In this document: one piece after another, positions 216-15,532 of the stretch
How positions within the stretch are numbered: position 1 is the stretch's first letter
Layout of the letters: each line of letters begins with the position of its first letter
DNA from: Clostridia bacterium
GTDB lineage: Bacteria; Bacillota; Clostridia; Monoglobales; Monoglobaceae
Direction of reading: 5' to 3'
Length of the DNA stretch: 24,000 nucleotides
Assembly (NCBI GenBank): GCA_045648565.1
Contig: JAZROF010000064.1
Location: forward strand, 8,969-32,968
The notes under the pieces: generated by a model
The model's database searches: none
Seen by the model: the letters and a program-made list of their open reading frames with translations, nothing else
What the model was told of the DNA's origin: nothing
Program-made: the position numbers and the translations under genes

Positions 216-247
216 GAAAATTTTGTAAAATATGTTTTGTATTTCAA

Positions 248-276: not shown

Positions 277-310
277 ATAAATATATATTTATAATAAAGG
301 AGAGATAAAA

Positions 311-466: not shown

Positions 467-470
467 AAAT

Positions 471-533: not shown

Positions 534-668
534 TTACATAATGTCCTGTATCATTCGTTTTGCACATTTGCATCTTTTTTTCATTTTTTTCATATAAGCA
601 GGGTCTGTCATCATAATTGCTCCTGCCGCAAGAGAAGCACCTGCAATAACGCCTACTATAAATCGCAT
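534..668 (-). CDS. Small membrane protein (44 aa), hypothetical
   Basis: Translation: MRFIVGVIAGASLAAGAIMMTDPAYMKKMKKRCKCAKRMIQDIM. AAGGAGG lies 7 nt upstream of the ATG. The start is 15 nt downstream of the PRC-barrel gene stop, and the stop codon abuts the terminator. It has a hydrophobic N-terminus and a basic C-terminus. Below the ORF-track size cutoff. Confidence 0.6.
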   Translation of the reverse strand: MRFIVGVIAGASLAAGAIMMTDPAYMKKMKKRCKCAKRMIQDIM

Positions 669-683
669 TTTTTTTGCCTCCTT

Positions 684-1118
684 TTAGTTTTTTACATCTA
701 TATTTTTTCCGTTTATGTTTATTTTATTTATATCTAAATAGGTGGTTTTTTTAAAAATATTTTCAGAAAATAAAAATCCTTCAATTTCCCCCGTTTCAAA
801 GTCAAAAACCATATCTCTCCCAATGCCGATTTTTTGTCTGTTCTTAAGAAAATCGCATCGGGAGATGTTTTTCTTAAAGGTTATGCCATCGTATTGCGGA
901 TGGGAAACCTCGCTGACAAAGATTTTTCCTTTCTTATATGTTGTGATGGAGGATGGGCAAATCCAGTTGCGGAGCGGAACGATACTGTTGCTTGACATAT
1001 AATAGCCTTTTATAGTGCCACTATCTGAAAATGCCACATCTGAAACTTTACCCAAATAAGTTTTTGTTTTATTGTCATAAACTTTTGTGTTTATAAATTT
1101 TCTTGCATTTTTTATCAT
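684..1118 (-). CDS. PRC-barrel domain protein (YlmC/YmxH-like, apparently two tandem barrels)
   Basis: 144-aa ORF. Segments such as GKVSDVAFSDSGTIKGYY and GIGRDMVFDFETGEIEGFLF resemble the PRC-barrel/YlmC sporulation-protein signature. An RBS (AAAGAAAGGAAAA) lies upstream. Confidence 0.65.
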   Translation of the reverse strand: MIKNARKFINTKVYDNKTKTYLGKVSDVAFSDSGTIKGYYMSSNSIVPLRNWICPSSITTYKKGKIFVSEVSHPQYDGITFKKNISRCDFLKNRQKIGIGRDMVFDFETGEIEGFLFSENIFKKTTYLDINKININGKNIDVKN

Positions 1119-1174
1119 TGGTTTTCCTTTCTTTAAACAAATTTACTAAAAATCGTCTAAATGTTATATATTCC

Positions 1175-1203
1175 TTGACTATTTTTGAGTTTTGGTGTAT
1201 TAT
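1175..1203 (+). promoter_or_regulatory. sigma-A type promoter for the DUF1015-hom-thrB-lysC operon
   Basis: TTGACT at 1175-1180, a 17-nt spacer, and TATTAT at 1198-1203. Confidence 0.5.
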
Positions 1204-1237
1204 GATAGGAGCAGAATTATTTTCAGGAGGTAAGTTT

Positions 1238-2545
1238 ATGGCAAATGTAATACCTTTCAAAGGGCTTCGGTACAATACTGAAATGTTTAAAAATCTTAAC
1301 GATGTTACCGCCCCTCCTTACGATATAATTTCAAATGAGGAGCAATCTGCTCTTTATGAAAAAAGTGAGTATAATATTGTCAGGGTTGACTATGGTAAAA
1401 CCTATGATACTGACGATGAAAATAATAATAAATACACCCGTTCAGGAGAAATGTTTGCTGATTGGATAGAAAAGGGCATTCTTAAAAAGGATGAAAAGCC
1501 TTCCTTTTATATATACGAACAGGTTTTTGAGTATAACGAAGCACCAATTTCTCTAAAGGGAATAATCTCTTTAGTTGAGATTGAGGAGTTTGACAAGAAA
1601 ATCGTTCTTCCTCACGAAAATACACTCTCTAAGGCAAAGACTGACAGGTTTGATTTAATGAGCACAACTAATGCAAATTTAAGCCAGATTTATTCTCTTT
1701 ATCTTGATGAGGATAAGGCTGCTCAAAAGCTTATTTCACAGTATTCAAAAGGTAAGCCTGATATTTCTTTTGTTACAGATGATAATATAACCCAGAATGT
1801 GTGGATTATTTCCGACACTGAAAAAACTGCAGAAATTACCAATGTCTTTAAGGATAAGCAATTGTTTATTGCAGACGGTCATCACAGATACGAAACTGCT
1901 TTAAACTTCCGTAATAAAAAGCGTCAGGAAAATCCGGGAGTAGAAAATGCACCATATGATTATGTTATGATGATGCTCACTTCAATGGGTGATAGCGGTC
2001 TTTTGGTATTTCCGACACACAGGATGATTAAAGATCTTCCTGAGTTTGATGAAAATATGCTCACAGGGTGTTTAACAGAGGACTTTACAGTGTCTAAAAT
2101 TTATTTTACCGAGGGCAATTATGAAGAAATTATAATGGATAAAATTTCTTCTGTATTAAACGAAAAATGCTTTGCTCTTTATACCGGCAAAGATTATTAT
2201 TACCGTTTTGAGCTTAAAAATACCGACGTAATAAACGATTATATAACTGATATGTCTTCAGCATATAAAAATCTTGATGTAACGCTTCTTCACACCCTTG
2301 TTTTAGAGAGGTTTTTGGAAATTGACCAAAATAATATGGCAAACCAGAAAAATCTTTTCTACACAAGAGATGCAAAAGAAGCAATTGAGGCGGTTAAGAA
2401 TGGTGAGTATCAATGCTCGTTCTTAATAAATGCAACAAGCGTTGCTGAAATTAAAGAGGTTTCACTGGCAAATGAGAAAATGCCTCAAAAATCAACATAT
2501 TTCTGGCCGAAATTGGTTACGGGAATTGTTATTAACAAGTTTTAA
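1238..2545 (+). CDS. DUF1015 family protein
   Basis: Start chosen at the ATG at 1238 (MANVIPFKGLRYN...), with GGAGG 7 nt upstream. The track's upstream extension from 1103 overlaps the divergent gene. The motifs IPFKGLRYN, PPYD, ADGHHRYETA and FPTHR are characteristic of DUF1015. Confidence 0.85.
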   Translation: MANVIPFKGLRYNTEMFKNLNDVTAPPYDIISNEEQSALYEKSEYNIVRVDYGKTYDTDDENNNKYTRSGEMFADWIEKGILKKDEKPSFYIYEQVFEYNEAPISLKGIISLVEIEEFDKKIVLPHENTLSKAKTDRFDLMSTTNANLSQIYSLYLDEDKAAQKLISQYSKGKPDISFVTDDNITQNVWIISDTEKTAEITNVFKDKQLFIADGHHRYETALNFRNKKRQENPGVENAPYDYVMMMLTSMGDSGLLVFPTHRMIKDLPEFDENMLTGCLTEDFTVSKIYFTEGNYEEIIMDKISSVLNEKCFALYTGKDYYYRFELKNTDVINDYITDMSSAYKNLDVTLLHTLVLERFLEIDQNNMANQKNLFYTRDAKEAIEAVKNGEYQCSFLINATSVAEIKEVSLANEKMPQKSTYFWPKLVTGIVINKF

Positions 2546-2570
2546 GCCTTGAGAAAGGAAGGATACACTT

Positions 2571-3770
2571 ATGAAAATTGCAATTATGGGTTTTGGTGTT
2601 GTTGGAAGCGGAGTTGGAGAGCTTCTTATAACCAACGCTAAAAACATTGCAAAAAAAGCAGGGGATACTATAGAAGTTAAGTATATTCTTGACCTTCGTG
2701 ATTTTCCTGACAGTCCTTATAACTGTTTTATTAAGGATTTTAATGAAATTTTAAATGACCCTGAGATTGAGGCTGTTGTTGAAGCGATGGGCGGAACTGT
2801 TCCCGCTTATGAGTTTACGAAAAAGCTTCTTCTTTCCGGTAAACACGTTGTTTCTTCAAATAAGGAGCTTGTTGCAAAGCACGGGACAGAGCTTTTGCAA
2901 ATCGCCAAAGAAAAAAGTATAAATTATCTCTTTGAGGCAAGTGTTGGGGGCGGTATTCCGATTATAAGACCTCTTATTTCAAGCCTTACGGGAAATGACA
3001 TAACGGGTATTGTCGGTATCTTAAACGGAACTACAAACTATATCTTAACCCAGATGATTAAAAACGGAAAGTCATTTGCCGAGGCACTTTCTGAGGCTCA
3101 GGAAAAGGGTTATGCCGAAAAAGACCCAACAGCAGATGTTGAGGGGATTGACACTTGCCGAAAGATTGCGATTTTAGCATCACTCGCTTACGGCAAGAAT
3201 GTAAATTGCGAAAAAATACCAACAGAGGGAATAACAAAGATTACAACGGAGGACGCAAGTTATGCTCAGGCAATGGGTTACAGCGTTAAGCTTGTTGGAC
3301 AGTGTGTTAAGGTAAAGAAAGGCGTTTTCGCCCGTGTTTGCCCGGCATTTATTGATTTAGACAGCCCTCTTGCAAATATTTCCGATGTATTTAACGGAAT
3401 TTTGGTTCAGGGTGAGTCTTTGGGAGATGTTATGTTCTACGGAAGAGGGGCAGGAAAGCTTCCTACTGCAAGTGCGATGGTTTCTGACCTCGTTGATGTT
3501 GCAAAGCACAGAAACACAAATATCCGAATTTTATGGAATGAGGCGGACGAGGATTATTTAAAAGATGGCAGTCAGCAAAAGTATGCTTATTACTTAAGAT
3601 TATCAGGAGACGCTGACGGATTTGATGAATATAAGGTTAAAAAGCTTGACGGTCTCACAAATGAATTTGCAGTTATAACAAAACCTTTAAGCGAAGAAGA
3701 ATTGTCAGTGGCTTTAGAATCAGCTCCTTTTAAAGGACATGAGGTTTTAGGAAAAATAAGGGTGATATAA
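2571..3770 (+). CDS. hom: Homoserine dehydrogenase
   Basis: N-terminal Rossmann motif MKIAIMGFGVVGSGV, central motifs FEASVGGGIPII and NGTTNYIL, and a C-terminal ACT-like tail. Confidence 0.95.
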   Translation: MKIAIMGFGVVGSGVGELLITNAKNIAKKAGDTIEVKYILDLRDFPDSPYNCFIKDFNEILNDPEIEAVVEAMGGTVPAYEFTKKLLLSGKHVVSSNKELVAKHGTELLQIAKEKSINYLFEASVGGGIPIIRPLISSLTGNDITGIVGILNGTTNYILTQMIKNGKSFAEALSEAQEKGYAEKDPTADVEGIDTCRKIAILASLAYGKNVNCEKIPTEGITKITTEDASYAQAMGYSVKLVGQCVKVKKGVFARVCPAFIDLDSPLANISDVFNGILVQGESLGDVMFYGRGAGKLPTASAMVSDLVDVAKHRNTNIRILWNEADEDYLKDGSQQKYAYYLRLSGDADGFDEYKVKKLDGLTNEFAVITKPLSEEELSVALESAPFKGHEVLGKIRVI

Positions 3771-4673
3771 ATGATTAAGGTGAGAGTTCCCGCAACAAGT
3801 GCAAATATGGGAGCAGGTTTTGATAGCCTTGGTATTGCTCTTACTATGTATAATTATGTTTCTATTGAAAAAATAAGCGGACCTACTGAAATAAAGGTAA
3901 TCGGCGAGGGTGAGAGTTTTCTTCCAACAAATGAAAATAATCTTATTTATAAATGCGTAGAGAAGATTTTCAAAGAGGCTGGCGAGAAGATGGTAAACAT
4001 TCGGCTTGTTATGGAGAATAATATTCCGATAACAAGAGGCCTTGGAAGTAGCAGTGCAAGTATAGTTGGCGGTCTTTTTGCCGCAAATGCCCTGCTTCAA
4101 GAACCCTTTAGCAAAGAGGAACTTCTCAATATGGCGGCAGAAATTGAGGGGCACGGAGATAATGTTACACCTGCGGTTTTTGGCGGGTTTTGCGTTAATG
4201 TTCCGTCGAAAAACAAGATAAATTATATTAAAGCCCCTGTTAAAGATGATTTGGAGTTCGCCACTTTTATTCCTGACTTTTTCTTGCAAACGAAAAAGTC
4301 AAGGGCAGCACTTCCTGAAAAAGTGCTTCACCGTGATGCAGTATTTAACGTGGGAAGAAGTGCTCTCCTTACAGCGAGTATTATTTCAGGAAAGTATGAA
4401 AATATCAGGACTTCTATGGGGGACAGACTTCATCAGGATTATAGAAAGAAGTTTATTCCCGGTATGGGAGAAATATTTGACCTATGTTATAACAATAAAG
4501 CCCTTGGGGTTTACCTAAGTGGCGCAGGTCCAACCATTATAGGAATTTTAAATGGCAGGTCTTCTGCCTTTGTTGAAAAGGTTGAGCCTACATTAAATAA
4601 AAAAATGAAAAATTGGCATCTTAGTATTCTTAAAGCGGATAATGAGGGTGCTGTTATATTAGGAGGTTTTTAA
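3771..4673 (+). CDS. thrB: Homoserine kinase
   Basis: VPATSANMGAGFDSLG and the GHMP-kinase motif PITRGLGSSSA. The start codon directly abuts the hom stop. Confidence 0.95.
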   Translation: MIKVRVPATSANMGAGFDSLGIALTMYNYVSIEKISGPTEIKVIGEGESFLPTNENNLIYKCVEKIFKEAGEKMVNIRLVMENNIPITRGLGSSSASIVGGLFAANALLQEPFSKEELLNMAAEIEGHGDNVTPAVFGGFCVNVPSKNKINYIKAPVKDDLEFATFIPDFFLQTKKSRAALPEKVLHRDAVFNVGRSALLTASIISGKYENIRTSMGDRLHQDYRKKFIPGMGEIFDLCYNNKALGVYLSGAGPTIIGILNGRSSAFVEKVEPTLNKKMKNWHLSILKADNEGAVILGGF

Positions 4674-5882
4674 ATGTCCATTGTTGTTCAGAAATTTGGC
4701 GGCAGCTCAGTTGCAGATGCGGCAAAGGTTTTAAATGTTGCATCAAGAGTTGTTGAGACTTACAAAGAGGGAAATGATGTGGTGGTTGTTGTTAGTGCCC
4801 AGGGCGATACAACAGACGACTTAATCGATAAGGCGAAAGAGATAAATCCAAACGCCTCAAAGCGTGAAATGGATATGCTCCTGTCCAGCGGTGAGCAGAT
4901 TTCAATAGCTCTTCTTGCTATGGCTATTGAAAAGCTTGGATGCCCTGTAATTTCTCTTACAGGCTGGCAGGCAGGGTTTAGAACAAACTCAAATTATTCT
5001 AACGCCCGTATCGATAAAATTGACACTGAAAGACTTATGTCAGAGCTTGACAAGAAGAAAATCGTTATCGTGGCAGGTTTCCAGGGCATTAACCGTTATG
5101 AAGATATAACAACCTTCGGCCGAGGCGGAAGCGACACATCTGCCGTTGCAATAGCATCTGCAATCCACGCAGACAAATGCGAGATTTACACTGATGTTGA
5201 CGGGGTTTATACAGCAGACCCCCGTATAGTAAAGAATGCTCAGAAGCTTGATGAAATTACTTATGATGAAATGCTTGAGCTTGCAAGTCTCGGTGCTAAT
5301 GTGCTTCACAATCGCTCAGTTGAAATGGCTAAAAAATATAATACCCGTCTGGAAGTTAAGTCAAGTTTTGAAAAGATAGACGGAACAGTTGTCAAGGAGG
5401 TTATTAAAATGGAAAAAATGTTAATAAGAGGCGTTGCCCGTGATAATGATGTTGCAAGTATTTCAATAGTTGGTGTTCCTGATACACCTGGGATTGCGTT
5501 TAAGGTATTCTCTCATCTTTCAAAGAAAGGCATCAATGTTGATGTTATTTTGCAGTCAATCGGCAGAGAAAACAAGAAAGATATTTCTTTCACAGTTCAA
5601 AAGGCTCATCTTGATGAAGCAATCGCTACATTAGAGGCTGAAAAGGAAAATCTCGACTTTGAGACAATCAAACACAGAGAAGATCTTTCCAAGGTTTCAA
5701 TAGTTGGTGCAGGTATGACTTCAAATCCTGGCGTTGCAGCTAAAATGTTTGAAGCTCTTTATAATGCGGGAATCAATATCCATATGATTTCAACATCTGA
5801 AATTAAAGTTTCAGTTTTAATCAATGTTGAAAAAGCGGAAAGAGCCGTTCAGGTTGTTCACGAAGCTTTCTTCGGCGCATAA
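4674..5882 (+). CDS. lysC: Aspartate kinase (LysC / AK-II type, two C-terminal ACT domains)
   Basis: VQKFGGSSV, KREMDMLLSSGEQIS, GRGGSDTSA and SIVGAGMTSNPGVAAKMF...STSEIKVS. It is collinear with Bacillus LysC. The start abuts the thrB stop. Confidence 0.95.
   Translation: MSIVVQKFGGSSVADAAKVLNVASRVVETYKEGNDVVVVVSAQGDTTDDLIDKAKEINPNASKREMDMLLSSGEQISIALLAMAIEKLGCPVISLTGWQAGFRTNSNYSNARIDKIDTERLMSELDKKKIVIVAGFQGINRYEDITTFGRGGSDTSAVAIASAIHADKCEIYTDVDGVYTADPRIVKNAQKLDEITYDEMLELASLGANVLHNRSVEMAKKYNTRLEVKSSFEKIDGTVVKEVIKMEKMLIRGVARDNDVASISIVGVPDTPGIAFKVFSHLSKKGINVDVILQSIGRENKKDISFTVQKAHLDEAIATLEAEKENLDFETIKHREDLSKVSIVGAGMTSNPGVAAKMFEALYNAGINIHMISTSEIKVSVLINVEKAERAVQVVHEAFFGA
5409..5882 (+). CDS. lysC: Candidate in-frame internal translation product of lysC (ACT-domain beta subunit, 157 aa)
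   Basis: AAGGAGG at 5394-5400 sits 8 nt upstream of the in-frame ATG at 5409 (codon 246), exactly at the kinase/ACT boundary. Nested alpha/beta expression is established for Bacillus subtilis AK-II and Corynebacterium LysC. Confidence 0.45.
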   Translation: MEKMLIRGVARDNDVASISIVGVPDTPGIAFKVFSHLSKKGINVDVILQSIGRENKKDISFTVQKAHLDEAIATLEAEKENLDFETIKHREDLSKVSIVGAGMTSNPGVAAKMFEALYNAGINIHMISTSEIKVSVLINVEKAERAVQVVHEAFFGA

Positions 5883-5889
5883 GAAGTGT

Positions 5890-5921
5890 AAGCCTCCTTC
5901 TCGCAAAAGGAGGCTTTTTTT
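5890..5921 (+). terminator. Rho-independent terminator after lysC
   Basis: AGCCTCCTT (5891-5899) pairs with AAGGAGGCT (5907-5915), followed by a T7 tract. Confidence 0.85.
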
Positions 5922-5957: not shown

Positions 5958-5986
5958 TTGACATTACGGGGAAGCTGTGATAAAAT
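5958..5986 (+). promoter_or_regulatory. sigma-A type promoter for the 85-aa ORF
   Basis: TTGACA at 5958-5963, a 17-nt spacer, and TGaTAAAAT with TAAAAT at 5981-5986. Confidence 0.6.
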
Positions 5987-6014
5987 GAAATAAGATTTTT
6001 TTAGGAGGCGAAAA

Positions 6015-6272
6015 ATGATGTTTTTTGGAAGAAAGCATTCTTCAAATTCATCTAAAGATGCAAATAGCTTTGCACCTTGTTTTCGCAGTGCAAAAAAATC
6101 TTCTAAAGTTGCTAATACTTCAGGCATTGTTTTTTCAATGTCTGTTTTTTTATGTATAGCTCTATGCCTAATTATAGCTCTATGCCTAATTGATATTATA
6201 GGAATAGCTTTACTAAGCATTATAATTCTTGGGCTAAGTACGAAAAAGCAAACGGCAGGAAATACTTTTTAA
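6015..6272 (+). CDS. Small membrane protein (85 aa), hypothetical
   Basis: AGGAGG at 6003-6008 lies 6 nt upstream of the ATG. The gene has its own promoter and its own terminator. The N-terminal half is basic and Ser-rich, and the C-terminal half is Ile/Leu-rich and hydrophobic (VFLCIALCLIIALCLIDIIGIALLSIIILGL). I recognise no family. Confidence 0.6.
   Translation: MMFFGRKHSSNSSKDANSFAPCFRSAKKSSKVANTSGIVFSMSVFLCIALCLIIALCLIDIIGIALLSIIILGLSTKKQTAGNTF
6156..6191 (+). repeat. Perfect tandem duplication of the 18-bp unit ATAGCTCTATGCCTAATT (x2), in frame (IALCLI-IALCLI)
   Basis: Read directly: 6156-6173 is identical to 6174-6191. Confidence 0.95.
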
Positions 6273-6291
6273 AGTTAATTGACTTAAAGGT

Positions 6292-6325
6292 TGCGGTTTT
6301 GCTTTTTCGGCAAAACCGCATTTTA
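6292..6325 (+). terminator. Rho-independent terminator (possible attenuator ahead of the long operon)
   Basis: TGCGGTTTTGC (6292-6302) pairs with GCAAAACCGCA (6310-6320), with a 7-nt loop, followed by TTTTATGTTATTT. Confidence 0.75.
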
Positions 6326-6351
6326 TGTTATTTAAATGGCAGGAGGCTAAT

Positions 6352-7146
6352 ATGAATATTATAGATTTTCATTCACATATATATCCAGAAAAGATTGCTG
6401 AAAAAGCCGTGGAAAGCGTTGGCGAGTTCTATGGAGTAGATATGGACGGCAAGGGAACGGCAAAGACTCTTTTAAAAGAGGGTAAAAAGTGTGGAGTTAC
6501 AAATTATGTTGTTCACTCTGTTGCCCTTACTGCATCAAGAGTTGAGGCTATAAATGACTATATAGCTTCTGAGTGCAAAGCACATAAAGAGTTCCACGGT
6601 TTCGGGACAATGCACGCAGACTTTGAAAATAAAATTGAAGAAATAGAAAGAGCAAGAAAAATGGGGCTTTTGGGCGTTAAAATCCACCCCGATACCCAGC
6701 TTTTTAATATGGATGATAGGAGAATGTTTGAGCTTTATGACTACCTAAGACAGGAAAATATTCCTCTCCTAATCCACTGCGGAGACTATCGATATGATTA
6801 TTCACACCCAAGACGACTTAAAAAGCTCCTGCGTGAGTTCCCCGGGCTAACGGTTATCGGTGCCCACTTCGGAGGCTGGTCTATGTGTGATTTAGCTTAT
6901 GAATATCTGGCAAAAGAAAACTGCTATGTCGATACATCAAGCTCATTCTGGATGCTTGGGATGAAACGGGCAAAGGAGCTTATAAGACTATACGGAGCCG
7001 AGAGAGTTGTTTTCGGTTCGGACTTTCCTATGTGGAGTGTTTCAGAAGAGCTTGAAAGGTTTTTAAGTATGAAATTAACGGACGAAGAAAACAGTCTGAT
7101 TCTATATAAAAATGCTGAGAAGATTCTTAAAATTAAGGAGTGTTAA
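6352..7146 (+). CDS. Amidohydro_2-type TIM-barrel metal-dependent hydrolase
   Basis: Start chosen at MNIIDFHSHIYPEK, with AGGAGG 5 nt upstream. DFHSH near the N-terminus, IHCGD in the middle and GSDFP near the C-terminus are the metal-ligand pattern of this superfamily. Confidence 0.85.
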   Translation: MNIIDFHSHIYPEKIAEKAVESVGEFYGVDMDGKGTAKTLLKEGKKCGVTNYVVHSVALTASRVEAINDYIASECKAHKEFHGFGTMHADFENKIEEIERARKMGLLGVKIHPDTQLFNMDDRRMFELYDYLRQENIPLLIHCGDYRYDYSHPRRLKKLLREFPGLTVIGAHFGGWSMCDLAYEYLAKENCYVDTSSSFWMLGMKRAKELIRLYGAERVVFGSDFPMWSVSEELERFLSMKLTDEENSLILYKNAEKILKIKEC

Positions 7147-7148
7147 AA

Positions 7149-8564
7149 ATGACTGAGATTTTTATATCTGATATAACTTTAAGAGAAGAAGGAAAGCAGG
7201 GCGGATATGCCTTAAGCTTTAAAGAAAAAATAGAGGTTGCAAAAATTCTTGACAAGATAAATGTGTCTGTTATTGAAACTGCACCTATTAAAAACGGAAA
7301 AACTGATATTTTATATCTTCATTCCGTTGCACCTATTATTAAAAACAGCGTCCTCTCTTGCCCAGTTGGTCTTGACGTTGAGGCGGTAGAGAAAACCTAT
7401 GATGCAATTAAAGATGCAAAGAAACCAAGAATTCATATAATGGTTCCTGTGTCAACTGTCCAGATGGAATATATCTGCAACAAAAAGCCAAAGGCAGTTC
7501 TTGCCCTTTCTGAAGAAGTTATTAAAAAAGCAGTTTCTCTTTGCCCTGATGTTGAGGTTTCCTTAATGGACGCAACAAGAGCGGAAAAGGAATTCCTTTA
7601 TGAAATTATCGAAAAGGTAATTGATTGTGGAGCAAAGACCATAACAATATGCGACAGTGCGGGTGAAATGCTCCCATCTGAGTTTGAAAGCTTTTTAAAG
7701 GATTTATTTGACGCTGTTCCTAAAATGAAAGAAACCCAGGTTTCTGTTGAGTGCAGCGACTCTCTTAATATGGCAGCGGCTTGTGCCCTTTCTTGTATAG
7801 GCAGCGGAGTTACCCAAATTAAGACCTCTGTTGTTTCCCACGAATATCCCCGTCTTAGTGCGGTTGCAAAGGTATTCCGCGAAAAAGGGGACTCTCTCGG
7901 TGTTAAAACAGGAATAAATATGGCTGTTTTAGATAACAGCGTTAAGAAAATTAAGCTTATGACAAGGGGCGGAAATTCATATACACCGTTTGATAACGGA
8001 ACAAATACTACTGCCGAAAATATTGAGCTTTCTTCAAACGATGATATAGCATCAGTTAAACTTGCAGTTAAAAAGCTTGGCTATGACTTATCTGAAGAGG
8101 ATAATGCCAAGGTTTTTGATGAAGTTGTTAAGGCTTCAAAGAATAAAAAAGTTGGCTCAAAGGAGCTTGATGCAATCGTAGCCTCAGTTGCTATGCAGGT
8201 TATCCCTACATATAAGCTTAAGAGCTATGTTATAAACAACGGAAACATAATTACCCCAACCGCTCATATTGAGCTTGAAAGAGACGGGGAAGTGCTTCAG
8301 GGCTTTTGCATTGGGGACGGTCCTATTGATGCGGCGTTCCTTGCAATTGAGCAGATAACAGGCCACCACTTTGAGCTTGATGATTTTCAGGTTCAGGCTG
8401 TAACCGAGGGCCGTGGCGCTATGGGCTCAAGCATTGTAAAACTTCGCCACAACGGAAAGCCATTTTCCGGAAAAGGTATTTCAACTGATATTATCGGGGC
8501 AAGTATCAATGCTTATATAAACGCCCTTAACAAGATTTGCTTTGAAGAGGAGGATGAGAGATGA
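7149..8564 (+). CDS. 2-isopropylmalate synthase homolog with a degenerate catalytic domain and an intact LeuA-type C-terminal regulatory domain (probable pseudoenzyme)
   Basis: Collinear with LeuA over its full length. Three catalytic motifs are changed: LRDGEQ becomes LREEGKQ (7179-7199), HxHxD becomes ECSDS (7749-7763), and GERAGN becomes SHEYPRL. The C-terminal GDGPIDAAFLAIEQITG ... QAVTEGRGAMGSSIVKL...GKGISTDIIGASINAYINALNKI is well conserved. Start at the ATG at 7149, with AAGGAG 9 nt upstream. Confidence 0.8.
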   Translation: MTEIFISDITLREEGKQGGYALSFKEKIEVAKILDKINVSVIETAPIKNGKTDILYLHSVAPIIKNSVLSCPVGLDVEAVEKTYDAIKDAKKPRIHIMVPVSTVQMEYICNKKPKAVLALSEEVIKKAVSLCPDVEVSLMDATRAEKEFLYEIIEKVIDCGAKTITICDSAGEMLPSEFESFLKDLFDAVPKMKETQVSVECSDSLNMAAACALSCIGSGVTQIKTSVVSHEYPRLSAVAKVFREKGDSLGVKTGINMAVLDNSVKKIKLMTRGGNSYTPFDNGTNTTAENIELSSNDDIASVKLAVKKLGYDLSEEDNAKVFDEVVKASKNKKVGSKELDAIVASVAMQVIPTYKLKSYVINNGNIITPTAHIELERDGEVLQGFCIGDGPIDAAFLAIEQITGHHFELDDFQVQAVTEGRGAMGSSIVKLRHNGKPFSGKGISTDIIGASINAYINALNKICFEEEDER

Positions 8565-11023
8565 AATTATCCTTTTCCACAAACAAGTGGAACGATATAA
8601 CCCTTTCAGAGTTTTTCGACTTAGCAGGGGAATATAAGTTTGACGGAATAGAAATCCATGATGTTTCAAAGCTTAAAGAGGCGGATTTGAAAGACGCTCC
8701 TTGGCGAATGATAGAAAGCGGAATAAAAATTTCCTGTATCGACATGGTAAAGGATATTTCCAAAGAAAGGGATGAGGCAAAAAAAGAGCTTATAAGATGC
8801 CTTGAAGTTGCCGAAATTCTTAAAGCACCTTACATAAGACTTAAAGCTCTTTTAGAAGAAGGGGTTGAGGAGTTTTTAAGAGAGAACCTTTCTCTTGCAG
8901 AAGAAAAGGGAGTGGTTTTGCTTATTGAAACCGCAGGGGTTTATGCAGATACAGAAAAGCTCCGTGACCTTTTGACAAACTTTGCAAGTGATACTTTGGC
9001 GGCTTTATGGGATGTCCACTATCCATATAGAATGCATGGGGAAACTCCTGAAAAGTCAATTACAAATTTAGGCGCTTATGTAAAGCATATTCATATAAAG
9101 GACTCTGAAAGTCTTGAAACAAAAAGCCTTGTGGGCGAGGGCAACCTCCCTATCAATCAGTTTATGGAGGCCCTTAGAAGCGTAAACTATGACGGATTTT
9201 TCTCAATTGAGTGGAATCCTATTTGGGACGAAGAGATAAGCGAGGTTGATATAATATTTCCACACTTCGTAAGCTTTATGTCAAGATATAAAGGCTTATC
9301 AAGAGGAAAATCTGCTCTGTATGACAATAAAACAAAGACGGGAAAGTTTCCCTGGAAGAAAGATGCTCTTATTGAGAAAACCTTTTCTCAGGTTCTTGAT
9401 AAAATGGTTGAGGAATTCCCTGACCAATACGCATTTAAATATACAACTCTTGATTACACAAGAACATATTCACAGTTTCGGGACGATGTTGACACCTTTG
9501 CAAGAAGCTTAATGGCTATGGGTGTCCGCCCCGGGCACCACGTTGCAGTATGGGCAACAAATGTTCCTCAGTGGTACATAGCTTTCTGGGCGACAACAAA
9601 AATCGGAGCGGTTTTGGTTACAATGAACACCGCTTATAAAATCCACGAGGCAGAGTATCTTTTAAAGCAATCCGACACTCATACCCTTATTATGATTGAG
9701 GGGTATCGTGATTCCGATTATTCAGGAATTATTGCTGAGCTTTGTCCTGAACTTGAAAACACAAAAGAGGGAGAGCCTCTCCACGCAAAGAGACTTCCGT
9801 TCCTTCGAAATGTTATAACAGTGGGCTTTAAGCAAAAGGGCTGCACAACATGGGAAGAGGCAATTGATAAAGCGGACAGCGTTCCTCTTGATGAGGTTTT
9901 AAGAGTTGCATCAAAGGTTAATGTAAACGATGTCTGCAATATGCAGTATACATCAGGAACAACAGGCTTTCCGAAAGGGGTTATGCTTACCCACTATAAT
10001 ATAGTCAATAACGGTAAGTGTATCGGCGACAGAATGGATTTATCCACGGCAGACAGAATGATGATTCAGGTGCCAATGTTCCATTGTTTCGGTATGGTTC
10101 TTGCTATGACCGCAACAATGACTCACGGGGGAACACTCCTCCCACTTCCTTATTATTCTCCAAAGCCTGCCCTCTCTTGCGTAAATCAGGAGAGAATAAC
10201 CTGTTTCCACGGCGTTCCAACAATGTTTATTGCAATGCTTGAGCACCCTGATTTTGAAAAGACTGACTTTTCTTATATGAGAACGGGTATTATGGCTGGT
10301 TCTCCTTGTCCTGAGGCTATTATGAATCAGGTTGTTGAGAAAATGAATATGAAGGAAATCACAATTGTTTATGGCCAGACAGAAGCGTCTCCGGGTTGCA
10401 CAATGAGCAGTACGGACGACAGCATTGAAGTCAGAGTTACAACTGTTGGAAGAGCGCTCCCTGAAATTCAGTGTAAGATTGTTGACCCTGAAACCGGGGA
10501 AGACCTTCCTGATAATGTTACGGGCGAATTTGTTGCCAAAGGCTATAACATTATGAAAGGCTATTATAAAATGCCAGAGGCTACTGCGGCGGCAATTGAT
10601 AAAGACGGCTGGCTCCATACAGGAGACCTTGCACTTCGCACACCTGAGGGAAATTATAAGATAACAGGCAGACTTAAAGATATGATTATCCGTGGTGGAG
10701 AAAATATTTATCCGAAAGAAATTGAGGAATTTATTTATACCCACGAAAAAGTCAAGGATGTTCAGGTTATCGGTATTCCTGATGAGCAGTACGGCGAAGA
10801 AATTATGGCTGTTATAATCTTAAAAGACGGGGAAGAAATGACAGTTGATGAAATGAAAGATTATATAAGAGCGCATATGGCAAAGCATAAGTGCCCGAGA
10901 TATATTGATTTTGTCCAAGAATTCCCAATGAATGCGGCGGGCAAAATTCTTAAATATAAGATGCGTGAAGACGCGGCAAAGAAACTTAATATCAAGAAAG
11001 TTGACGGCATTGTTGCCGACTAG
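8561..11023 (+). CDS. Fusion protein: N-terminal xylose-isomerase-like TIM barrel (sugar-phosphate isomerase/epimerase fold, about aa 1-250) plus C-terminal AMP-forming acyl-CoA ligase (about aa 265-820)
   Basis: The N-terminus (LSFSTNKW..FDGIEIH...IRLKA...LLIET...HIHIKD...FSIEW) has the AP_endonuc_2/TIM pattern. The C-terminus has YTSGTTGFPKGVMLTH, YGQTE, GWLHTGD, RLKDMIIRGGENIYP and GKILK. It is a single uninterrupted frame, and its ATG overlaps the upstream stop (ATGA). Confidence 0.85.
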   Translation: MKLSFSTNKWNDITLSEFFDLAGEYKFDGIEIHDVSKLKEADLKDAPWRMIESGIKISCIDMVKDISKERDEAKKELIRCLEVAEILKAPYIRLKALLEEGVEEFLRENLSLAEEKGVVLLIETAGVYADTEKLRDLLTNFASDTLAALWDVHYPYRMHGETPEKSITNLGAYVKHIHIKDSESLETKSLVGEGNLPINQFMEALRSVNYDGFFSIEWNPIWDEEISEVDIIFPHFVSFMSRYKGLSRGKSALYDNKTKTGKFPWKKDALIEKTFSQVLDKMVEEFPDQYAFKYTTLDYTRTYSQFRDDVDTFARSLMAMGVRPGHHVAVWATNVPQWYIAFWATTKIGAVLVTMNTAYKIHEAEYLLKQSDTHTLIMIEGYRDSDYSGIIAELCPELENTKEGEPLHAKRLPFLRNVITVGFKQKGCTTWEEAIDKADSVPLDEVLRVASKVNVNDVCNMQYTSGTTGFPKGVMLTHYNIVNNGKCIGDRMDLSTADRMMIQVPMFHCFGMVLAMTATMTHGGTLLPLPYYSPKPALSCVNQERITCFHGVPTMFIAMLEHPDFEKTDFSYMRTGIMAGSPCPEAIMNQVVEKMNMKEITIVYGQTEASPGCTMSSTDDSIEVRVTTVGRALPEIQCKIVDPETGEDLPDNVTGEFVAKGYNIMKGYYKMPEATAAAIDKDGWLHTGDLALRTPEGNYKITGRLKDMIIRGGENIYPKEIEEFIYTHEKVKDVQVIGIPDEQYGEEIMAVIILKDGEEMTVDEMKDYIRAHMAKHKCPRYIDFVQEFPMNAAGKILKYKMREDAAKKLNIKKVDGIVAD

Positions 11024-11037
11024 AAAGGATGATAGAT

Positions 11038-12096
11038 ATGGAAATTAAAATTACAAAAACAACTACTCCGAAAGCAAAGCCAACAGGCAAACTTGGATTT
11101 GGTAAGGTTTTCACAGACCATATGTTCGTTATGAACTACACAGAGGGAAAGGGCTGGCACGATGCAAGAATCGTTCCTTATGATAAGATTACCCTTGACC
11201 CATCCGCTATGGTTTTCCATTACGGTCAGGAAATGTTTGAAGGCCTTAAGGCTTATATGGGAAAAGACGGTAAGGCAAGACTCTTCCGTCCTGATATGAA
11301 CGCAAAAAGAACAAACGCAACAAATAAGAGACTCTGCATTCCACAGCTTCCTGAGGAAGACTTTGTTGAGGCAGTTCGAGCAGTTGTTGAGGTTGATAAA
11401 GACTGGATTCCGACAGAAGACGGAACATCACTTTATATCAGACCATTCATTATTGCAACTGACGAATTTTTAGGGGTTGCCCCATCTAAGACATATCTTT
11501 TTATTATAATTCTTTCTCCAAGCGGTGCTTACTATGAAAGCGGTCTTGCTCCGGTTGGAATCTGGATTGAAGATGACTATGTTCGAGCTGTTAAGGGCGG
11601 TATCGGTTTTGCGAAAACTGGCGGAAACTATGCGGCATCACTCGCTGCTCAGGTTAAGGCTCATGACGACGGCTATTCTCAGGTTCTCTGGCTTGACGGC
11701 GTTGAGAGAAAGTATATTGAAGAAGTTGGCGCAATGAACATTTTCTTTAAGATTGACGGAAAAATCGTAACTCCTATGCTCAGCGGAAGTATCCTCCCTG
11801 GTATAACAAGAGATTCTGTTTTGGCTCTTTGCCGTCAGTGGGGTATGGAAGTTGAAGAAAGAAAGATAAGCGTTGATGAGCTTATTGAGGCTCAGAAGAG
11901 CGGCAGACTTGAAGAATGCTTCGGAACAGGCACAGCGGCAGTTATTTCTCCTGTTGGTAAGCTTCGCTATAAAGACGATGTTATGCTTATAAACAATAAC
12001 GAAATCGGCGAAGTAAGTCAGAAGCTCTATGATACAATAACAGGTATCCAGTGGGGCAAGATTGAGGACGAAAATAAATGGACATTAATGGTTTAA
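11038..12096 (+). CDS. ilvE: Branched-chain amino acid aminotransferase
   Basis: GFGKVFTDHMF, FHYGQEMFEGLKAY, LYIRPF, GGNYAASL and GITRDS are class-IV BCAT signatures. Start placed at the ATG at 11038 (RBS AAAGGA 8 nt upstream); the in-frame ATG at 11029 remains possible. Confidence 0.92.
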   Translation: MEIKITKTTTPKAKPTGKLGFGKVFTDHMFVMNYTEGKGWHDARIVPYDKITLDPSAMVFHYGQEMFEGLKAYMGKDGKARLFRPDMNAKRTNATNKRLCIPQLPEEDFVEAVRAVVEVDKDWIPTEDGTSLYIRPFIIATDEFLGVAPSKTYLFIIILSPSGAYYESGLAPVGIWIEDDYVRAVKGGIGFAKTGGNYAASLAAQVKAHDDGYSQVLWLDGVERKYIEEVGAMNIFFKIDGKIVTPMLSGSILPGITRDSVLALCRQWGMEVEERKISVDELIEAQKSGRLEECFGTGTAAVISPVGKLRYKDDVMLINNNEIGEVSQKLYDTITGIQWGKIEDENKWTLMV

Positions 12097-12773
12097 ACCC
12101 TAAAAGAATAACGGTTTTTGCAGGGCATTACGGAAGCGGAAAGACCAATATCGCAATAAATTATGCGTTAATGCTTTCCAAGAACAGCGATAAGGTTTCA
12201 ATTGCGGACCTTGATATTGTTAATCCGTATTTTCGGACAAAGGATTCGGCAAAGGCTCTTTCGGAGGCGGGAGTTAAGCTTATCTCCTCCGAATATGCAA
12301 ACACCAATGTTGACACTCCTGCTCTTCCTGCCGAGATTTATTCGGTTTTCGAGGATAAAAGTCAAACGGCGGTAATCGATGTTGGTGGGGATGACAGAGG
12401 TGCCCTTGCCCTCGGTAGATATGTTCCCTTTATGGAAGAAGAGGGGAATTATGAAATGCTCTTTGTTATAAACAAGCATAGATTTTTAACAGGGGATGCC
12501 GAAAGAACCATTGAGATTATGAAAGAAATTGAGAGTGCGGCAAAATTCGCATTCACGGGGATTGTCAATAACTCTAATATTGGAGAAGAAACAACAGCCC
12601 AAACAGTTTTAAACTCGGTTTCTTATGCAAAGGAGGTTTCGGCGCTGTCCGGACTTCCGATTAAAATGACAACTGTTAAAAGCTCCCTTTATGACGAGCT
12701 TAACGGCAAAATAGAAAACACTATGCCACTTGACCTTTATGTCCGGCAATCGTGGCTTAAAAACAAGGAATAA
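12078..12773 (+). CDS. P-loop NTPase (SIMIBI-class, MinD/GPN-like), cysteine-free
   Basis: Walker A GHYGSGKT, DLDIVNPYF, Walker B/G3-like AVIDVGGDD, and NKHR. The start overlaps the ilvE 3' end by 19 nt, with GAGGA 7 nt upstream. Confidence 0.75.
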   Translation: MDINGLNPKRITVFAGHYGSGKTNIAINYALMLSKNSDKVSIADLDIVNPYFRTKDSAKALSEAGVKLISSEYANTNVDTPALPAEIYSVFEDKSQTAVIDVGGDDRGALALGRYVPFMEEEGNYEMLFVINKHRFLTGDAERTIEIMKEIESAAKFAFTGIVNNSNIGEETTAQTVLNSVSYAKEVSALSGLPIKMTTVKSSLYDELNGKIENTMPLDLYVRQSWLKNKE

Positions 12774-12822: not shown

Positions 12823-13026
12823 ATGGCAAAGGTTACATTTAATGAAAATTTGTGTAAGGGTTGCGGACTTTGCGTAACTGCTTGTCCAAAGCATATTGTA
12901 GCACTTAAAGACACATTAAACGCAAAAGGCTATAGCCCGGCAGGGGTTACAGACCCTGAGGCTTGTATTGGTTGTGCGTTTTGCGCGACGATGTGCCCCG
13001 ACTGCGTTATAACAGTAGAAAAATAG
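12823..13026 (+). CDS. 2-oxoacid:ferredoxin oxidoreductase delta subunit (2x[4Fe-4S] ferredoxin)
   Basis: 67 aa with two motifs, CKGCGLCVTACP and CIGCAFCATMCP. RBS AAGGAGG. Confidence 0.9.
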   Translation: MAKVTFNENLCKGCGLCVTACPKHIVALKDTLNAKGYSPAGVTDPEACIGCAFCATMCPDCVITVEK

Positions 13027-13171: not shown

Positions 13172-14239
13172 ATGAGTGAAAAAGTTTTAATGAAAGGTAA
13201 CGAAGCTTTGGCAGAAGCCGCTATTATGGCAGGTTGTCGTCATTACTTCGGTTATCCGATAACACCGCAGACAGAAGTTGCGGCATATATGTCAAAAAGA
13301 CTCCCTAAAATTGAGGGCGGAGTATTTTTGCAGGCAGAAAGTGAAGTTGCAGCCATCAATATGGTTATGGGCGTTGCTGCAACAGGTAAGAGGGTTATGA
13401 CATCCTCTTCAAGCCCGGGTATATCTTTAAAGAGTGAGGGTATTTCCTATATTGCAGGATGCGACCTCCCGGCGTTAATCGTTAATGTTCAGCGTGGCGG
13501 CCCAGGTCTTGGGGGTATCCAGCCAAGCCAGTCTGACTATACTCAGGCAACAAAAGGCCCTGGCCACGGGGATTTCAGACTTATCGTTTTAGCTCCTGCA
13601 TCAGTTCAGGAAATGGTTGATATGACAGTTAAGGGCTTTGACCTTGCTGATAAGTATCAGATGCCTGTTATGCTTTTATCTGACGGAACAATGGGCCAGA
13701 TGATGGAGCCTGTTTCTCTTGATATAAGCGAAGTTAAGACATACGAAAAGCCTTGGGCAGTGAATGGAACAAAGGGTGAGAGAAAGCCAAATATCGTAAA
13801 CTCTCTCTACTTAAAGCCTGACGAACTTGAAAAGGTTAACTTTGAAAGATATGAGCGCTATGCTAAAATCGAAGCAGAAGAAGCTCTTTGGGAAGAATAT
13901 AGGATGGATGACGCCGAAGTTTGTATTGTTGCATTCGGTGTTGCCGCAAGAGTTTCTCAGAACGCAATCGACAGAGCAAGAGAAAAGGGCATTAAGGTTG
14001 GTATGATAAGACCGATTACTCTTTGGCCATTCCCGAAAGAAGCACTTAAAAAGGCAAGTGAAAAGGTTAACAAGTTTATCTCTGTTGAGCTTAATATGGG
14101 CCAGATGATAGACGATATCCGTCTTGCAATTGAATGCAAAAAGGAAGTTCTCCTCTGCAACCGCACAGGCGGTATGATTCCGACAGTTGAGAATGTTCTT
14201 TCAAAAATTGACGAAGCTATAGAAGGAGGCAGAAAATAA
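13172..14239 (+). CDS. vorB: 2-oxoacid:ferredoxin oxidoreductase alpha subunit (VorB/KorA type)
   Basis: KGNEALAEAAIMAGCRHYFGYPITPQTE, LQAESEVAAINMV and GPGLG. The roughly 355-aa alpha subunit of four-subunit OFORs closely resembles the archaeal VorB-type sequence as I remember it. Substrate specificity is not provable by eye. Confidence 0.85.
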   Translation: MSEKVLMKGNEALAEAAIMAGCRHYFGYPITPQTEVAAYMSKRLPKIEGGVFLQAESEVAAINMVMGVAATGKRVMTSSSSPGISLKSEGISYIAGCDLPALIVNVQRGGPGLGGIQPSQSDYTQATKGPGHGDFRLIVLAPASVQEMVDMTVKGFDLADKYQMPVMLLSDGTMGQMMEPVSLDISEVKTYEKPWAVNGTKGERKPNIVNSLYLKPDELEKVNFERYERYAKIEAEEALWEEYRMDDAEVCIVAFGVAARVSQNAIDRAREKGIKVGMIRPITLWPFPKEALKKASEKVNKFISVELNMGQMIDDIRLAIECKKEVLLCNRTGGMIPTVENVLSKIDEAIEGGRK

Positions 14240-14982
14240 TGGCAGTAGTATTTGAAAAACCAAAGGGCTTAACTGATGCAGTTCTTCATTATTGCCCAGG
14301 TTGTACTCATGGTATTATTCATAGATTAGTTGCTGAAGCTTTAGATGAGCTTGGCGTAACAGACAGAGCAATTGGTGTTGCTCCTGTTGGATGCTCCGTT
14401 TTTGCTTATAACTATTTCAACTGCGATATGGTTCAGGCGGCTCACGGTCGTGCTCCGGCAGTTGCAACAGGTGTTAAACGCTCCGACCCTAATAATATTG
14501 TATTTACATATCAGGGTGACGGCGACCTTGCGGCTATCGGAACAGCTGAAACTGTTCACAGTGCAGCAAGAGGTGAAAACATTACAGTTATTTTCGTAAA
14601 CAACGCAATCTACGGTATGACAGGCGGACAGATGGCTCCAACAACCCTTCCGGGACAAATTACACAGACCTCTCCATACGGTAGAGATGTAGAAAAGGTT
14701 GGCTATCCTGTTAAGGTTTGCGAAATGCTTTCACAGGTTGACGGTGCAACTTATCTTGAAAGAGTTGCCGTAAACAATGTTAAGAATGTTAAAGCTGCAA
14801 AGGCTGCTATTAAGAAAGCGTTTAAGAATCAGATTGAAGGCAAGGGCTTCTCTTTAATCGAAGTTTTATCAACTTGTCCGACAAACTGGGGCCTTGCACC
14901 AACTAAGGCGATTGAGTGGCTTGAAGAAAATATGATGCCTTATTACCCACTTGGAGTATATAAGGACAAGACAGCGGAGTAA
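14239..14982 (+). CDS. 2-oxoacid:ferredoxin oxidoreductase beta subunit (TPP-binding)
   Basis: YCPGCTHG and GDGD...NNAIYGMTGGQ (TPP motif). Its ATG overlaps the alpha-subunit stop (TAATG). Confidence 0.9.
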   Translation: MAVVFEKPKGLTDAVLHYCPGCTHGIIHRLVAEALDELGVTDRAIGVAPVGCSVFAYNYFNCDMVQAAHGRAPAVATGVKRSDPNNIVFTYQGDGDLAAIGTAETVHSAARGENITVIFVNNAIYGMTGGQMAPTTLPGQITQTSPYGRDVEKVGYPVKVCEMLSQVDGATYLERVAVNNVKNVKAAKAAIKKAFKNQIEGKGFSLIEVLSTCPTNWGLAPTKAIEWLEENMMPYYPLGVYKDKTAE

Positions 14983-14995
14983 GGAGGAAAAGAAA

Positions 14996-15532
14996 ATGAA
15001 TAAAGAAATACTTATTGCAGGCTTTGGCGGACAGGGTATTTTATTCTCCGGAAAGTTCCTTGCCTATGGCGGTCTTATCGACGGAAAAGAAGTTTCCTGG
15101 CTCCCGTCTTATGGTCCTGAAATGCGTGGCGGCACAGCCAATTGCAGTATCATTTTAAGCGATAATAAAATCGGCTCTCCAATCGTTGATAAGCCGGATG
15201 TTTTAATCGCAATGAATGCTCCGTCTTTTGACAAGTATATAACAGAAGTAAAGTCAGGCGGAATGGCTATTGTTGATAGCTCACTCATTGATAAAAAGAG
15301 CGAAAGAGACGATGTTGAGGCATATTATATTCCTGCAACCCGTCTTGCATCAGAAGAAGGTCTTACAGGCCTTGCAAATATGATTATTTTAGGTCTTTTC
15401 CTTAAAAAGACCAACCTTATGACTGACGAGCTTATCGAGGCGGTTATGAAGAAGATTGTTCCGGCTAAAAAGCCACAGCTTTATGACCTTAATATGAAAG
15501 CTATTCAATTAGGTTATAACTACGAAGCGTAA
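14996..15532 (+). CDS. 2-oxoacid:ferredoxin oxidoreductase gamma subunit
   Basis: Start chosen at MNKEILIAGFGGQGILFSGK, with AGGAGG 8 nt upstream. SYGPEMRGG is typical of gamma subunits. The track's start at 14951 overlaps the beta subunit. Confidence 0.9.
   Translation: MNKEILIAGFGGQGILFSGKFLAYGGLIDGKEVSWLPSYGPEMRGGTANCSIILSDNKIGSPIVDKPDVLIAMNAPSFDKYITEVKSGGMAIVDSSLIDKKSERDDVEAYYIPATRLASEEGLTGLANMIILGLFLKKTNLMTDELIEAVMKKIVPAKKPQLYDLNMKAIQLGYNYEA

Follow-up and report, generated by a model that had tools for sequence, protein, structure and literature searches.

The stretch of DNA analysed here, called the window throughout, is 24,000 nucleotides (nt) long and comes from a Clostridia bacterium of the Monoglobaceae (contig JAZROF010000064.1, positions 8,969 to 32,968 of the forward strand). 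Our subject is its gene at 7149-8564, which encodes a paralog of 2-isopropylmalate synthase (IPMS; LeuA) that retains the regulatory domain of the enzyme and has lost its catalytic motifs, together with the gene directly downstream, which encodes a triosephosphate isomerase (TIM) barrel fused to an AMP-forming acyl-coenzyme A (CoA) ligase. The features of this pair, all on the plus strand, are as follows.

7149-8564, plus strand: catalytically dead LeuA paralog, 471 amino acids, assigned from Pfam, NCBIfam and alignments
7161-7832, plus strand: degenerate HMGL-like TIM barrel, residues 5-228, from Pfam and the structure model
7185-7187 (E13), 7566-7568 (M140), 7749-7751 (E201) and 7755-7757 (S203): barrel positions of the catalytic Asp, Glu, His and His
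8154-8537, plus strand: LeuA_dimer allosteric domain, residues 336-463, with GDGPIDA at residues 389-395 and G426 at 8424-8426
8561-11023, plus strand: xylose-isomerase-like TIM barrel fused to an AMP-forming acyl-CoA ligase, 820 amino acids, with the barrel (residues 1-240) at 8561-9280 and the ligase (residues 276-820) at 9386-11020

Catalytic positions of the LeuA-like protein and its family

The LeuA-like gene has an AAGGAG Shine-Dalgarno sequence 8 nt 5' of its ATG at 7149 and ends in a TGA at 8562-8564. Pfam places an HMGL-like domain (PF00682) at residues 5-228 (E=5e-38) and a LeuA_dimer domain (PF08502) at residues 336-463 (E=9e-33). BLASTP against Escherichia coli LeuA (NC_000913) yields a collinear alignment over residues 3-471 at 26% identity, which bears out the end-to-end collinearity claimed in the initial annotation of this DNA, and the sole large gap in it is the AHSSGIHQDG region. 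Individual motifs were read from alignments to solved IPMS structures and to true LeuAs. At the LRDGEQ position the protein reads L11-R12-E13-E14-G15-K16, with Glu in place of the Asp ligand; the loss of Asp claimed earlier therefore stands, and the extra residue claimed with it does not, because the alignment needs no gap. R12, the Arg of this motif that binds the 2-oxoacid carboxylate, is present. Both His of the HxHxD motif are lost, the first position being E201 and the second S203, with C202 and D204 retained, and the general-base Glu of the sxED motif is M140, a loss that the initial annotation had not listed. GERAGN has undergone a four-residue deletion and otherwise reads as unrelated residues, and the HxSGIHQDG block is missing along with about 30 surrounding residues. 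For the His pair, for GERAGN and for the missing HxSGIHQDG segment the initial annotation had reached the same view. We also considered Cys and Asp as substitute ligands at the His positions, but exact indexing puts E201 and S203 there, and a re-ligated metal site is rejected because the metal-ligand positions are hypervariable across relatives. The closest NCBIfam models are those of bacterial LeuA, yet the protein falls far short of their equivalog cut-offs, scoring 296.6 bits against a cut-off of 532 for NF002086 and 257 against 599 for TIGR00973. In Mycobacterium tuberculosis IPMS, changes at R80 and E218, E218A included, abolish activity (PMC10464499), and the accessory domain is essential (PMC9860122).

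The same losses run through a whole family. A word-indexed search returned hundreds of full-length relatives, and among representatives at 50% identity, searched exhaustively, more than 100 clusters with proteins of 450-490 amino acids rank ahead of the first true LeuAs (about 500-516 amino acids). We aligned 105 family members with five LeuA-like sequences that keep the triad, three of which are full LeuAs. Comparison with LeuA had been named at the outset as the check on ligand loss, and it gives a clear answer: the Asp/His/His triad is kept by none of the 105, and a single His survives in only three. The Asp position holds Glu in 18 members, Gln in 13, Asn in 11, Lys in 10 and Asp in 9, with other residues elsewhere; the Arg position of LRDGEQ is Arg in 34, Lys in 26 and Cys in 17, again with others; and the general-base position is Glu in 24, Leu in 23, Ile in 13 and Val in 10, among others. 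The ligand, general-base and LRDGEQ positions are hypervariable in these 105 sequences and share no replacement consensus. Since the general-base position also reads Met in P0238, a sequence used as a true-LeuA reference, loss of the general base weighs less than loss of the metal triad. The HxSGIHQDG columns are empty in every one of the 105, and when 93 members were searched for domains the HCS_D2 accessory domain (PF22617) was found in none and LeuA_dimer in all. As judged from its sequence, the LeuA-like protein cannot be a LeuA-type condensing enzyme.

The gene is nonetheless not decaying. A lookup of the exact sequence of the window protein gave no record. Its nearest relative, at locus L090 in GCA_045578465.1, encodes a protein 93% identical, and comparison with this ortholog gives a ratio of nonsynonymous to synonymous substitution rates (dN/dS) of 0.053 overall, 0.068 in the barrel, 0.09 in the linker and 0.02 in the regulatory domain. 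A scan of one genome per species found at least 591 genomic loci that carry the gene; the best 80 of these are all from uncultured metagenome-assembled genomes of gut and rumen, the main carriers being Oscillospiraceae, Acutalibacteraceae, Faecousia and Lachnospiraceae. Traced across genomes in this way, the degenerate form turns out to be a large old family, and the gene is functional and ancient, held under purifying selection. With every tested metal and base motif lost, relatives hypervariable at these sites and a low dN/dS, the claim of a pseudoenzyme made in the initial annotation is strongly supported.

Some sequences and loci stand apart from this picture. P0244 (L087/L088, 8001-9551) and P0256 (L086, 8001-9494) keep Asp/His/His and lack the HxSGIHQDG segment. 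We rejected them as transitional forms of the family, because their neighbours are those of ordinary ilv/leu operons and do not include the ligase fusion; they are a separate, different kind of partly disabled LeuA, and one of the two lies directly upstream of an intact LeuA/CimA paralog of 528 amino acids. Separately, a few carriers of the dead-LeuA gene are binned as Synergistaceae, Lentisphaeria, Coriobacteriaceae/Eggerthellaceae, Salinivirgaceae, Cryptobacteroides or Abditibacteriota (L030, L028, L019, L033, L036, L068, L070, L079), and either horizontal transfer of the module or mis-binning may be the cause.

Regulatory domain, partner ligase and pathway genes

Pairwise identity within the family is 35% in the barrel, 25% in the linker and 57% in the regulatory domain, whereas three true LeuAs share 48-56%, 38-51% and 38-43% over the same parts, so that the gradient of conservation is reversed relative to the true enzyme. 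Of 68 positions with at least 85% conservation, 42 fall in the regulatory domain, and the strong conservation that the initial annotation had seen there is thus a property of the family. G389, G391, D447 and N461 do not vary at all, true LeuAs included, and the GDGPIDA loop, G421, A424, G426, G441, G443 and T446 are nearly invariant. G426 of the window protein, which is Gly in 104 of the 105 family members, aligns with G462 of E. coli LeuA, and G462D is a feedback-resistant form of that enzyme (PMC6345581). Searched against PDB sequences, the regulatory domain finds only a weak match, the Leptospira CimA domain 3F6G. An AlphaFold model of the whole protein has a predicted local distance difference test score (pLDDT) of 92, rising above 95 in the barrel; Foldseek superposes this barrel on the IPMS barrels 3EWB, 3EEG and 3RMJ with TM scores of 0.85-0.94 and root-mean-square deviations of 1.6-2.4 Å, and the full-chain model matches M. 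tuberculosis LeuA, the leucine-bound structure 3FIG included. The pattern of conservation points to the regulatory domain as the functional core of the LeuA-like protein.

The start of the fusion gene overlaps the stop of the LeuA-like gene in an ATGA at 8561-8564, as the initial annotation had noted, and this arrangement recurs. Here and below, neighbourhood counts are over 85 loci unless another denominator is given. In 81 of the 85 the next gene downstream, on the same strand, is the fusion, and in the other four the contig ends; among the 81 pairs the stop and start overlap in 41 (35 of them as a 4-nt ATGA) and are 0-30 nt apart in 32 more, making 73 in total. A search of these loci, as distinct from whole genomes, found no true LeuA near the module, and the neighbourhood of the LeuA-like gene holds no leuBCD genes. 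The LeuA-like gene has the ligase fusion as its dedicated partner. Family-wide identity is 76% in the ligase domain of the fusion and 46% in its barrel. Searching for homologs of the xylose-isomerase-like domain brought up nothing but fragments of its own fusion family and no characterised relative, and a fold search with it found generic sugar isomerase and epimerase barrels at 14-21% identity.

The control of the pair in relatives ties it to leucine. A translated string that recurs upstream of the gene, QRAGGWCEP, proved to be T-box RNA. Of 10 loci tested with Rfam, nine have a T-box immediately 5' of the LeuA-like gene, at 103-125 bits against a gathering score of 93, and the tenth (L059), with no Rfam T-box at the gathering score, is matched by an nhmmer profile that we built from the nine leaders. 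With this profile, T-boxes were found 40-240 nt 5' of the gene in 46 of 86 loci searched. Their specifier columns read C in 46 of 46, T in 46 of 46, and then C in 31 or G in 15, that is, CUC or CUG; a purine follows in 35 of the 46, and the two overlapping frames mix non-synonymous codons. Because the specifier is CUC or CUG, the pair would be switched on by uncharged tRNA-Leu, and in these relatives it belongs to a leucine starvation regulon.

The genes downstream of the pair in the window, all on the plus strand, supply further enzymes of branched-chain metabolism.

11029-12096, plus strand: branched-chain amino acid aminotransferase IlvE (NF009897, 511 bits against a cut-off of 307)
12078-12773, plus strand: P-loop (CbiA/ParA/Mrp-like) ATPase, 231 amino acids, overlapping the end of ilvE by 19 nt
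12823-13026, plus strand: 2x[4Fe-4S] ferredoxin-type delta subunit of 2-oxoacid oxidoreductase
13172-15532, plus strand: 2-oxoisovalerate-type 2-oxoacid:ferredoxin oxidoreductase, with alpha at 13172-14239, beta at 14239-14982 and gamma at 14951-15532
15555-16106, plus strand: helix-turn-helix (HTH)-cupin protein, found in 43 loci and always directly upstream of a copy of ACS2
16135-17820, plus strand: second acyl-CoA ligase (ACS2), homolog of MacsMa (3ETC, E=7e-194)

The alpha subunit of the oxidoreductase passes the VorB model NF005507 with 544 bits against a cut-off of 399. IlvE is adjacent to the pair in 27 of the 85 loci, and the block of Vor, P-loop, ferredoxin, HTH-cupin and ACS2 genes adjoins it in about half, in varying arrangements. 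The P-loop ATPase occurs in 40 loci, where the order P-loop, Fer4, Vor is invariable, and it may help to mature the oxidoreductase or to deliver Fe-S to it. The best NCBIfam match of ACS2 is staphylococcal MbcS, below cut-off, and its Methanosarcina homolog MacsMa (PDB 3ETC) prefers 2-methylbutyrate (PMC10455477). An HTH-cupin gene invariably stands before ACS2, so that a partner of a ligand-binding type is encoded ahead of each ligase. Between them, the genes around the pair cover what is left of the route from acyl-CoA to amino acid.

The HTH-cupin/ACS2 modules next to the LeuA-like pair have T-boxes of their own, with AUC (Ile) specifiers in 25 and GUA or GUC (Val) specifiers in 11; these were read by the register of a regular expression, a less rigorous procedure than the profile alignment used for Leu. 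Loci with two such modules generally have one Ile and one Val T-box (L021 and L025 are examples). The coordinates of the T-boxes on these modules are:

L025: 14060-14290 and 16662-16906
L021: 7730-7502 and 5029-4788
L037: 4734-4511

There are accordingly three ligase modules, one for each branched-chain amino acid, which feed the Vor complex and IlvE. Since the ligases are AMP-forming and are induced in starvation, by uncharged tRNA, the pathway is taken to run in the biosynthetic direction.

Proposed leucine sensing and its alternatives

We think it probable that the dead LeuA is a leucine-sensing, obligate partner of the ligase fusion, acting in the leucine arm of a pathway from branched-chain fatty acids to amino acids. 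The ligase of the fusion would convert isovalerate to isovaleryl-CoA, VorABCD would carry out the ferredoxin-dependent reductive carboxylation of isovaleryl-CoA to 4-methyl-2-oxopentanoate, and IlvE would transaminate this to leucine; across the three modules, Leu, Ile and Val would be made by reductive carboxylation from isovalerate, 2-methylbutyrate and isobutyrate. The dead LeuA, for its part, would dimerise and bind leucine through its conserved regulatory domain, and the signal would pass to the ligase, probably via barrel-to-barrel or regulatory-domain contacts, and throttle the ATP-consuming entry step much as true LeuA controls the de novo route. The leucine binding, the physical complex, the inhibitory sign and isovalerate as the substrate are the elements that we infer. 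The initial annotation had proposed a sensing or scaffolding subunit of the fusion, and this finds indirect support in the invariant adjacency of the two genes, their translational coupling, the conservation of the regulatory domain, G426 and the Leu T-boxes. Of the ligands it had listed, leucine is favoured and a 2-oxoacid is not, because Arg12 is conserved in only 34 of the 105 members. More tentatively, and as a reading that we would put slightly below even chances, a LeuA-derived pseudoenzyme may have been co-opted by an isovalerate-CoA ligase as its leucine-sensing allosteric subunit, which would have shifted the feedback module of de novo leucine synthesis to salvage from branched-chain fatty acids.

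Several observations weigh against leucine sensing at this locus, or at least complicate it. The window contains no T-box at the Rfam gathering score, and its leader at E<=1 only weak, chance-level matches, so that we infer its leucine-specific control from relatives; its closest relatives (L003, L005, L006, L007 and L090) likewise have no T-box. In addition, 21 of 29 barrel positions conserved at 80% or more are ancestral LeuA residues, the ancestral pocket residues D8, T10, S102, D141, R144 and D169 are kept at 92-99%, and there is a family-specific motif, P100-x-S-x-x-Q-M-E107-Y108-x4-K113 (the position before M106 is also written x), as well as a family-specific F24. With its ancestral residues conserved and a motif of its own, the barrel is not inert filler, and it may contain an interface or a residual ligand pocket. 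On the side of the partner, the best NCBIfam match of the fusion is PRK12583, a generic subfamily, at 700 bits and below its cut-off. E123, the canonical metal Glu of the fusion's own barrel, is Lys in 23 of 68 homologs, and with this change in many homologs that barrel may also be non-catalytic.

Among the alternatives, the one that fares best, which we still consider unlikely, is that the ligase has in the LeuA-like protein an obligate subunit of a structural or activating kind, required for folding, oligomerisation or substrate specificity much as MbtH-like proteins serve adenylating enzymes, and that the protein does not sense any amino acid, its LeuA_dimer domain serving only to dimerise. 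Invariant adjacency and translational coupling are what such a subunit would show; the family motifs F24, P100, M106-E107-Y108, K113, E409-L-D-D-F413 and L432-R433 could be interfaces; and Pfam labels the LeuA_dimer domain both allosteric and dimerisation. However, the most invariant positions of the protein are GxGPxDA, G426, G441, G443 and D447, which goes beyond the needs of dimerisation, and the Leu-specific T-box ties the module to leucine status. Scaffolding and leucine sensing are not mutually exclusive.

The conserved pocket raises a different alternative, to which we give rather little credence, namely that the remodelled barrel binds 4-methyl-2-oxopentanoate, isovaleryl-CoA or an isopropylmalate-like acid and links the ligase with Vor, either as a sensor or as an adaptor for channelling. 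The retention of D8, T10, S102, D141, R144 and D169 and the Q-M-E-Y motif on the active-site helix are in keeping with a bound ligand, as is the precedent that DRE-TIM proteins form channelling complexes with CoA-dependent partners, DmpG/DmpF (1nvm) being among the fold matches. Yet the Arg that would hold a 2-oxoacid carboxylate is present in only about a third of the family (34/105), and with its metal the protein has lost what would bind the 2-oxo group. Of its two halves the barrel is less conserved than the regulatory one, and the Vor genes are adjacent in roughly half of the loci while the ligase is adjacent always. This alternative and the scaffold both overlap with the leucine-sensing partner proposed here.

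It is less probable still that the protein is an enzyme with new, metal-independent chemistry, possibly acting together with the fused barrel on a substrate or product of the ligase. Purifying selection on the barrel (dN/dS 0.068) and the conservation of polar residues on its catalytic face (D8, S102, E107, Y108, K113, D141, R144, D169) would fit such an enzyme, but the lost ligands and base have no conserved replacement at what are hypervariable positions, the family has lost the accessory subdomain with which LeuA closes its active site and binds acetyl-CoA, and the ligase/Vor/IlvE pathway needs no further step.

That the gene is a decaying pseudogene or an ordinary leuA under a wrong annotation is refuted: JGI does name one family member 2-isopropylmalate synthase, but the reading frame is intact in hundreds of genomes at a dN/dS of 0.05, the catalytic motifs are gone, the scores lie below the LeuA cut-offs, the neighbourhood is without leuBCD, and NCBI calls the members P0066, P0079 and P0084 hypothetical proteins. 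Having failed on its defining catalytic features, the LeuA-like protein should not be filed as 2-isopropylmalate synthase, a label that would wrongly credit its carriers with de novo leucine synthesis in metabolic reconstructions.

The leucine-sensing partner can be set beside several known systems. Type-I LeuA itself (TIGR00973/PRK00915; E. coli b0074; Neisseria meningitidis 3RMJ) shares with the window protein the collinear order of domains, the barrel fold, the GxGPxDA loop and the equivalent of G462. The window protein differs in being some 40-50 residues shorter and in having no metal site, general-base Glu, GERAGN or HxSGIHQDG, and its family is never found in a leu operon and always upstream of the acyl-CoA ligase fusion. 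The nearest parallel in logic is HisZ, a catalytically dead paralog of histidyl-tRNA synthetase (HisRS) that serves as the histidine-sensing regulatory subunit of the short-form ATP-phosphoribosyltransferase. In both cases a dead paralog of an enzyme of the same amino acid keeps its amino-acid-binding module and is dedicated to a pathway-entry enzyme; fold and parent are different, however, the partner here is an adenylate-forming salvage ligase, and the complex and allostery of HisZ are proven, whereas the dead LeuA is known from sequence and gene context. The ACT-domain partners, such as IlvN/IlvH of acetohydroxyacid synthase or the ACT protein at L001 described below, likewise place a small-molecule sensor beside a committed enzyme, but the sensor in our case is a whole degenerate enzyme comprising barrel, linker and LeuA_dimer. 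The DmpG/DmpF aldolase-dehydrogenase (1NVM, 4JN6), which is among the fold matches, also combines a DRE-TIM barrel with a CoA-dependent enzyme; DmpG is active with an intact metal site, whereas the dead LeuA has no such site left and is paired with a ligase.

Rumen bacteria make branched-chain amino acids from branched-chain fatty acids by reductive carboxylation, a physiology described since the 1960s. The acyl-CoA ligases, VorABCD, IlvE, the rumen and gut anaerobe hosts and the amino-acid-specific T-boxes all fit this scheme, to which the LeuA-derived subunit and the xylose-isomerase-like barrel on the leucine-arm ligase are additions. Searches of the available literature returned no description of an IPMS pseudoenzyme, of the ligase fusion or of the operon. 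The recruitment of pseudoenzymes as partners or sensors is already known, and what is new is the parent family and the client enzyme. If our proposal is correct, the dead LeuA would be a widespread addition to the short list of pseudoenzymes that act as allosteric subunits, the first from the LeuA/DRE-TIM family, and it would show a regulatory domain being carried between pathways by keeping an entire dead enzyme. For many bacteria that degrade fibre in the rumen and gut, isovalerate, isobutyrate and 2-methylbutyrate are requirements, and the genes and controls for converting these acids are poorly defined. Three ligase modules specified by T-boxes make the question of branched-chain fatty acid assimilation testable, and together with the Ile and Val modules, VorABCD and IlvE the dead LeuA and its ligase would, if the proposal holds, amount to the first gene-level definition, regulation included, of this assimilation in rumen and gut Clostridia.

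The window leader, the operon start and individual loci

Upstream of the pair, the window has a first operon gene and a leader region of another kind than a T-box, with these features:

5958-5986, plus strand: sigma-70-like promoter, TTGACA-17-TAAAAT with extended TG, 11 of 12 matches, the best in the region
6015-6272, plus strand: small leader open reading frame (ORF), 85 amino acids including 9 Leu and 11 Ile, with an AGGAGG Shine-Dalgarno sequence
6292-6320, plus strand: strong intrinsic terminator hairpin, 12-bp stem and T run, -18.5 kcal/mol
6325-7146, plus strand: Amidohydro_2 (PF04909, E=8e-33), first gene of the operon

The promoter lies 3' of the terminator of an aspartokinase gene (5890-5916), and the C-terminal half of the leader ORF is hydrophobic and rich in Ile and Leu. 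An equivalent ORF is present in L003, L005, L006 and L007, all four of which also conserve a similar terminator hairpin, and L090 has a gene for 86 amino acids at the same place. The window and its closest relatives hence share a promoter, an ORF of 82-96 amino acids and a terminator just before the first gene, in the following leader regions:

Window: 5958-6325
L003: 9630-10000
L005: 8858-9206
L006: 7664-8024
L007: 9627-10000
L090: 7948-8294

Going by its sequence, this leader could be an attenuator with an unusually long leader peptide, or could combine an attenuator with the gene of a small membrane protein.

The stop of the Amidohydro_2 gene lies 2 nt 5' of the ATG at 7149. Genes of this type adjoin the pair in 21 of the 85 loci, either upstream or after the ligase, and the protein has no evident role in the ligase/Vor/IlvE pathway. 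Further upstream, at 1103-5882, the window contains a DUF1015 gene, homoserine dehydrogenase, a GHMP (homoserine) kinase and an aspartokinase with ACT domains; L090 has these genes in the same order, which places the module in an amino acid biosynthesis neighbourhood.

Three further observations concern single loci. In L001/L002 an aromatic cluster at 168-4236 on the minus strand, a few kb from the LeuA-like pair, comprises an indolepyruvate-oxidoreductase-like pair, a phenylacetate-CoA-ligase-like gene and a small ACT-domain protein, and is a counterpart of the arrangement of ligase, oxidoreductase and sensor. L059 has a cobalamin riboswitch at 9265-9477 on the minus strand, just upstream of the module and on the opposite strand from it. 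In L005 the genes of an AzlC/AzlD branched-chain amino acid exporter adjoin the cluster at 20576-21404.

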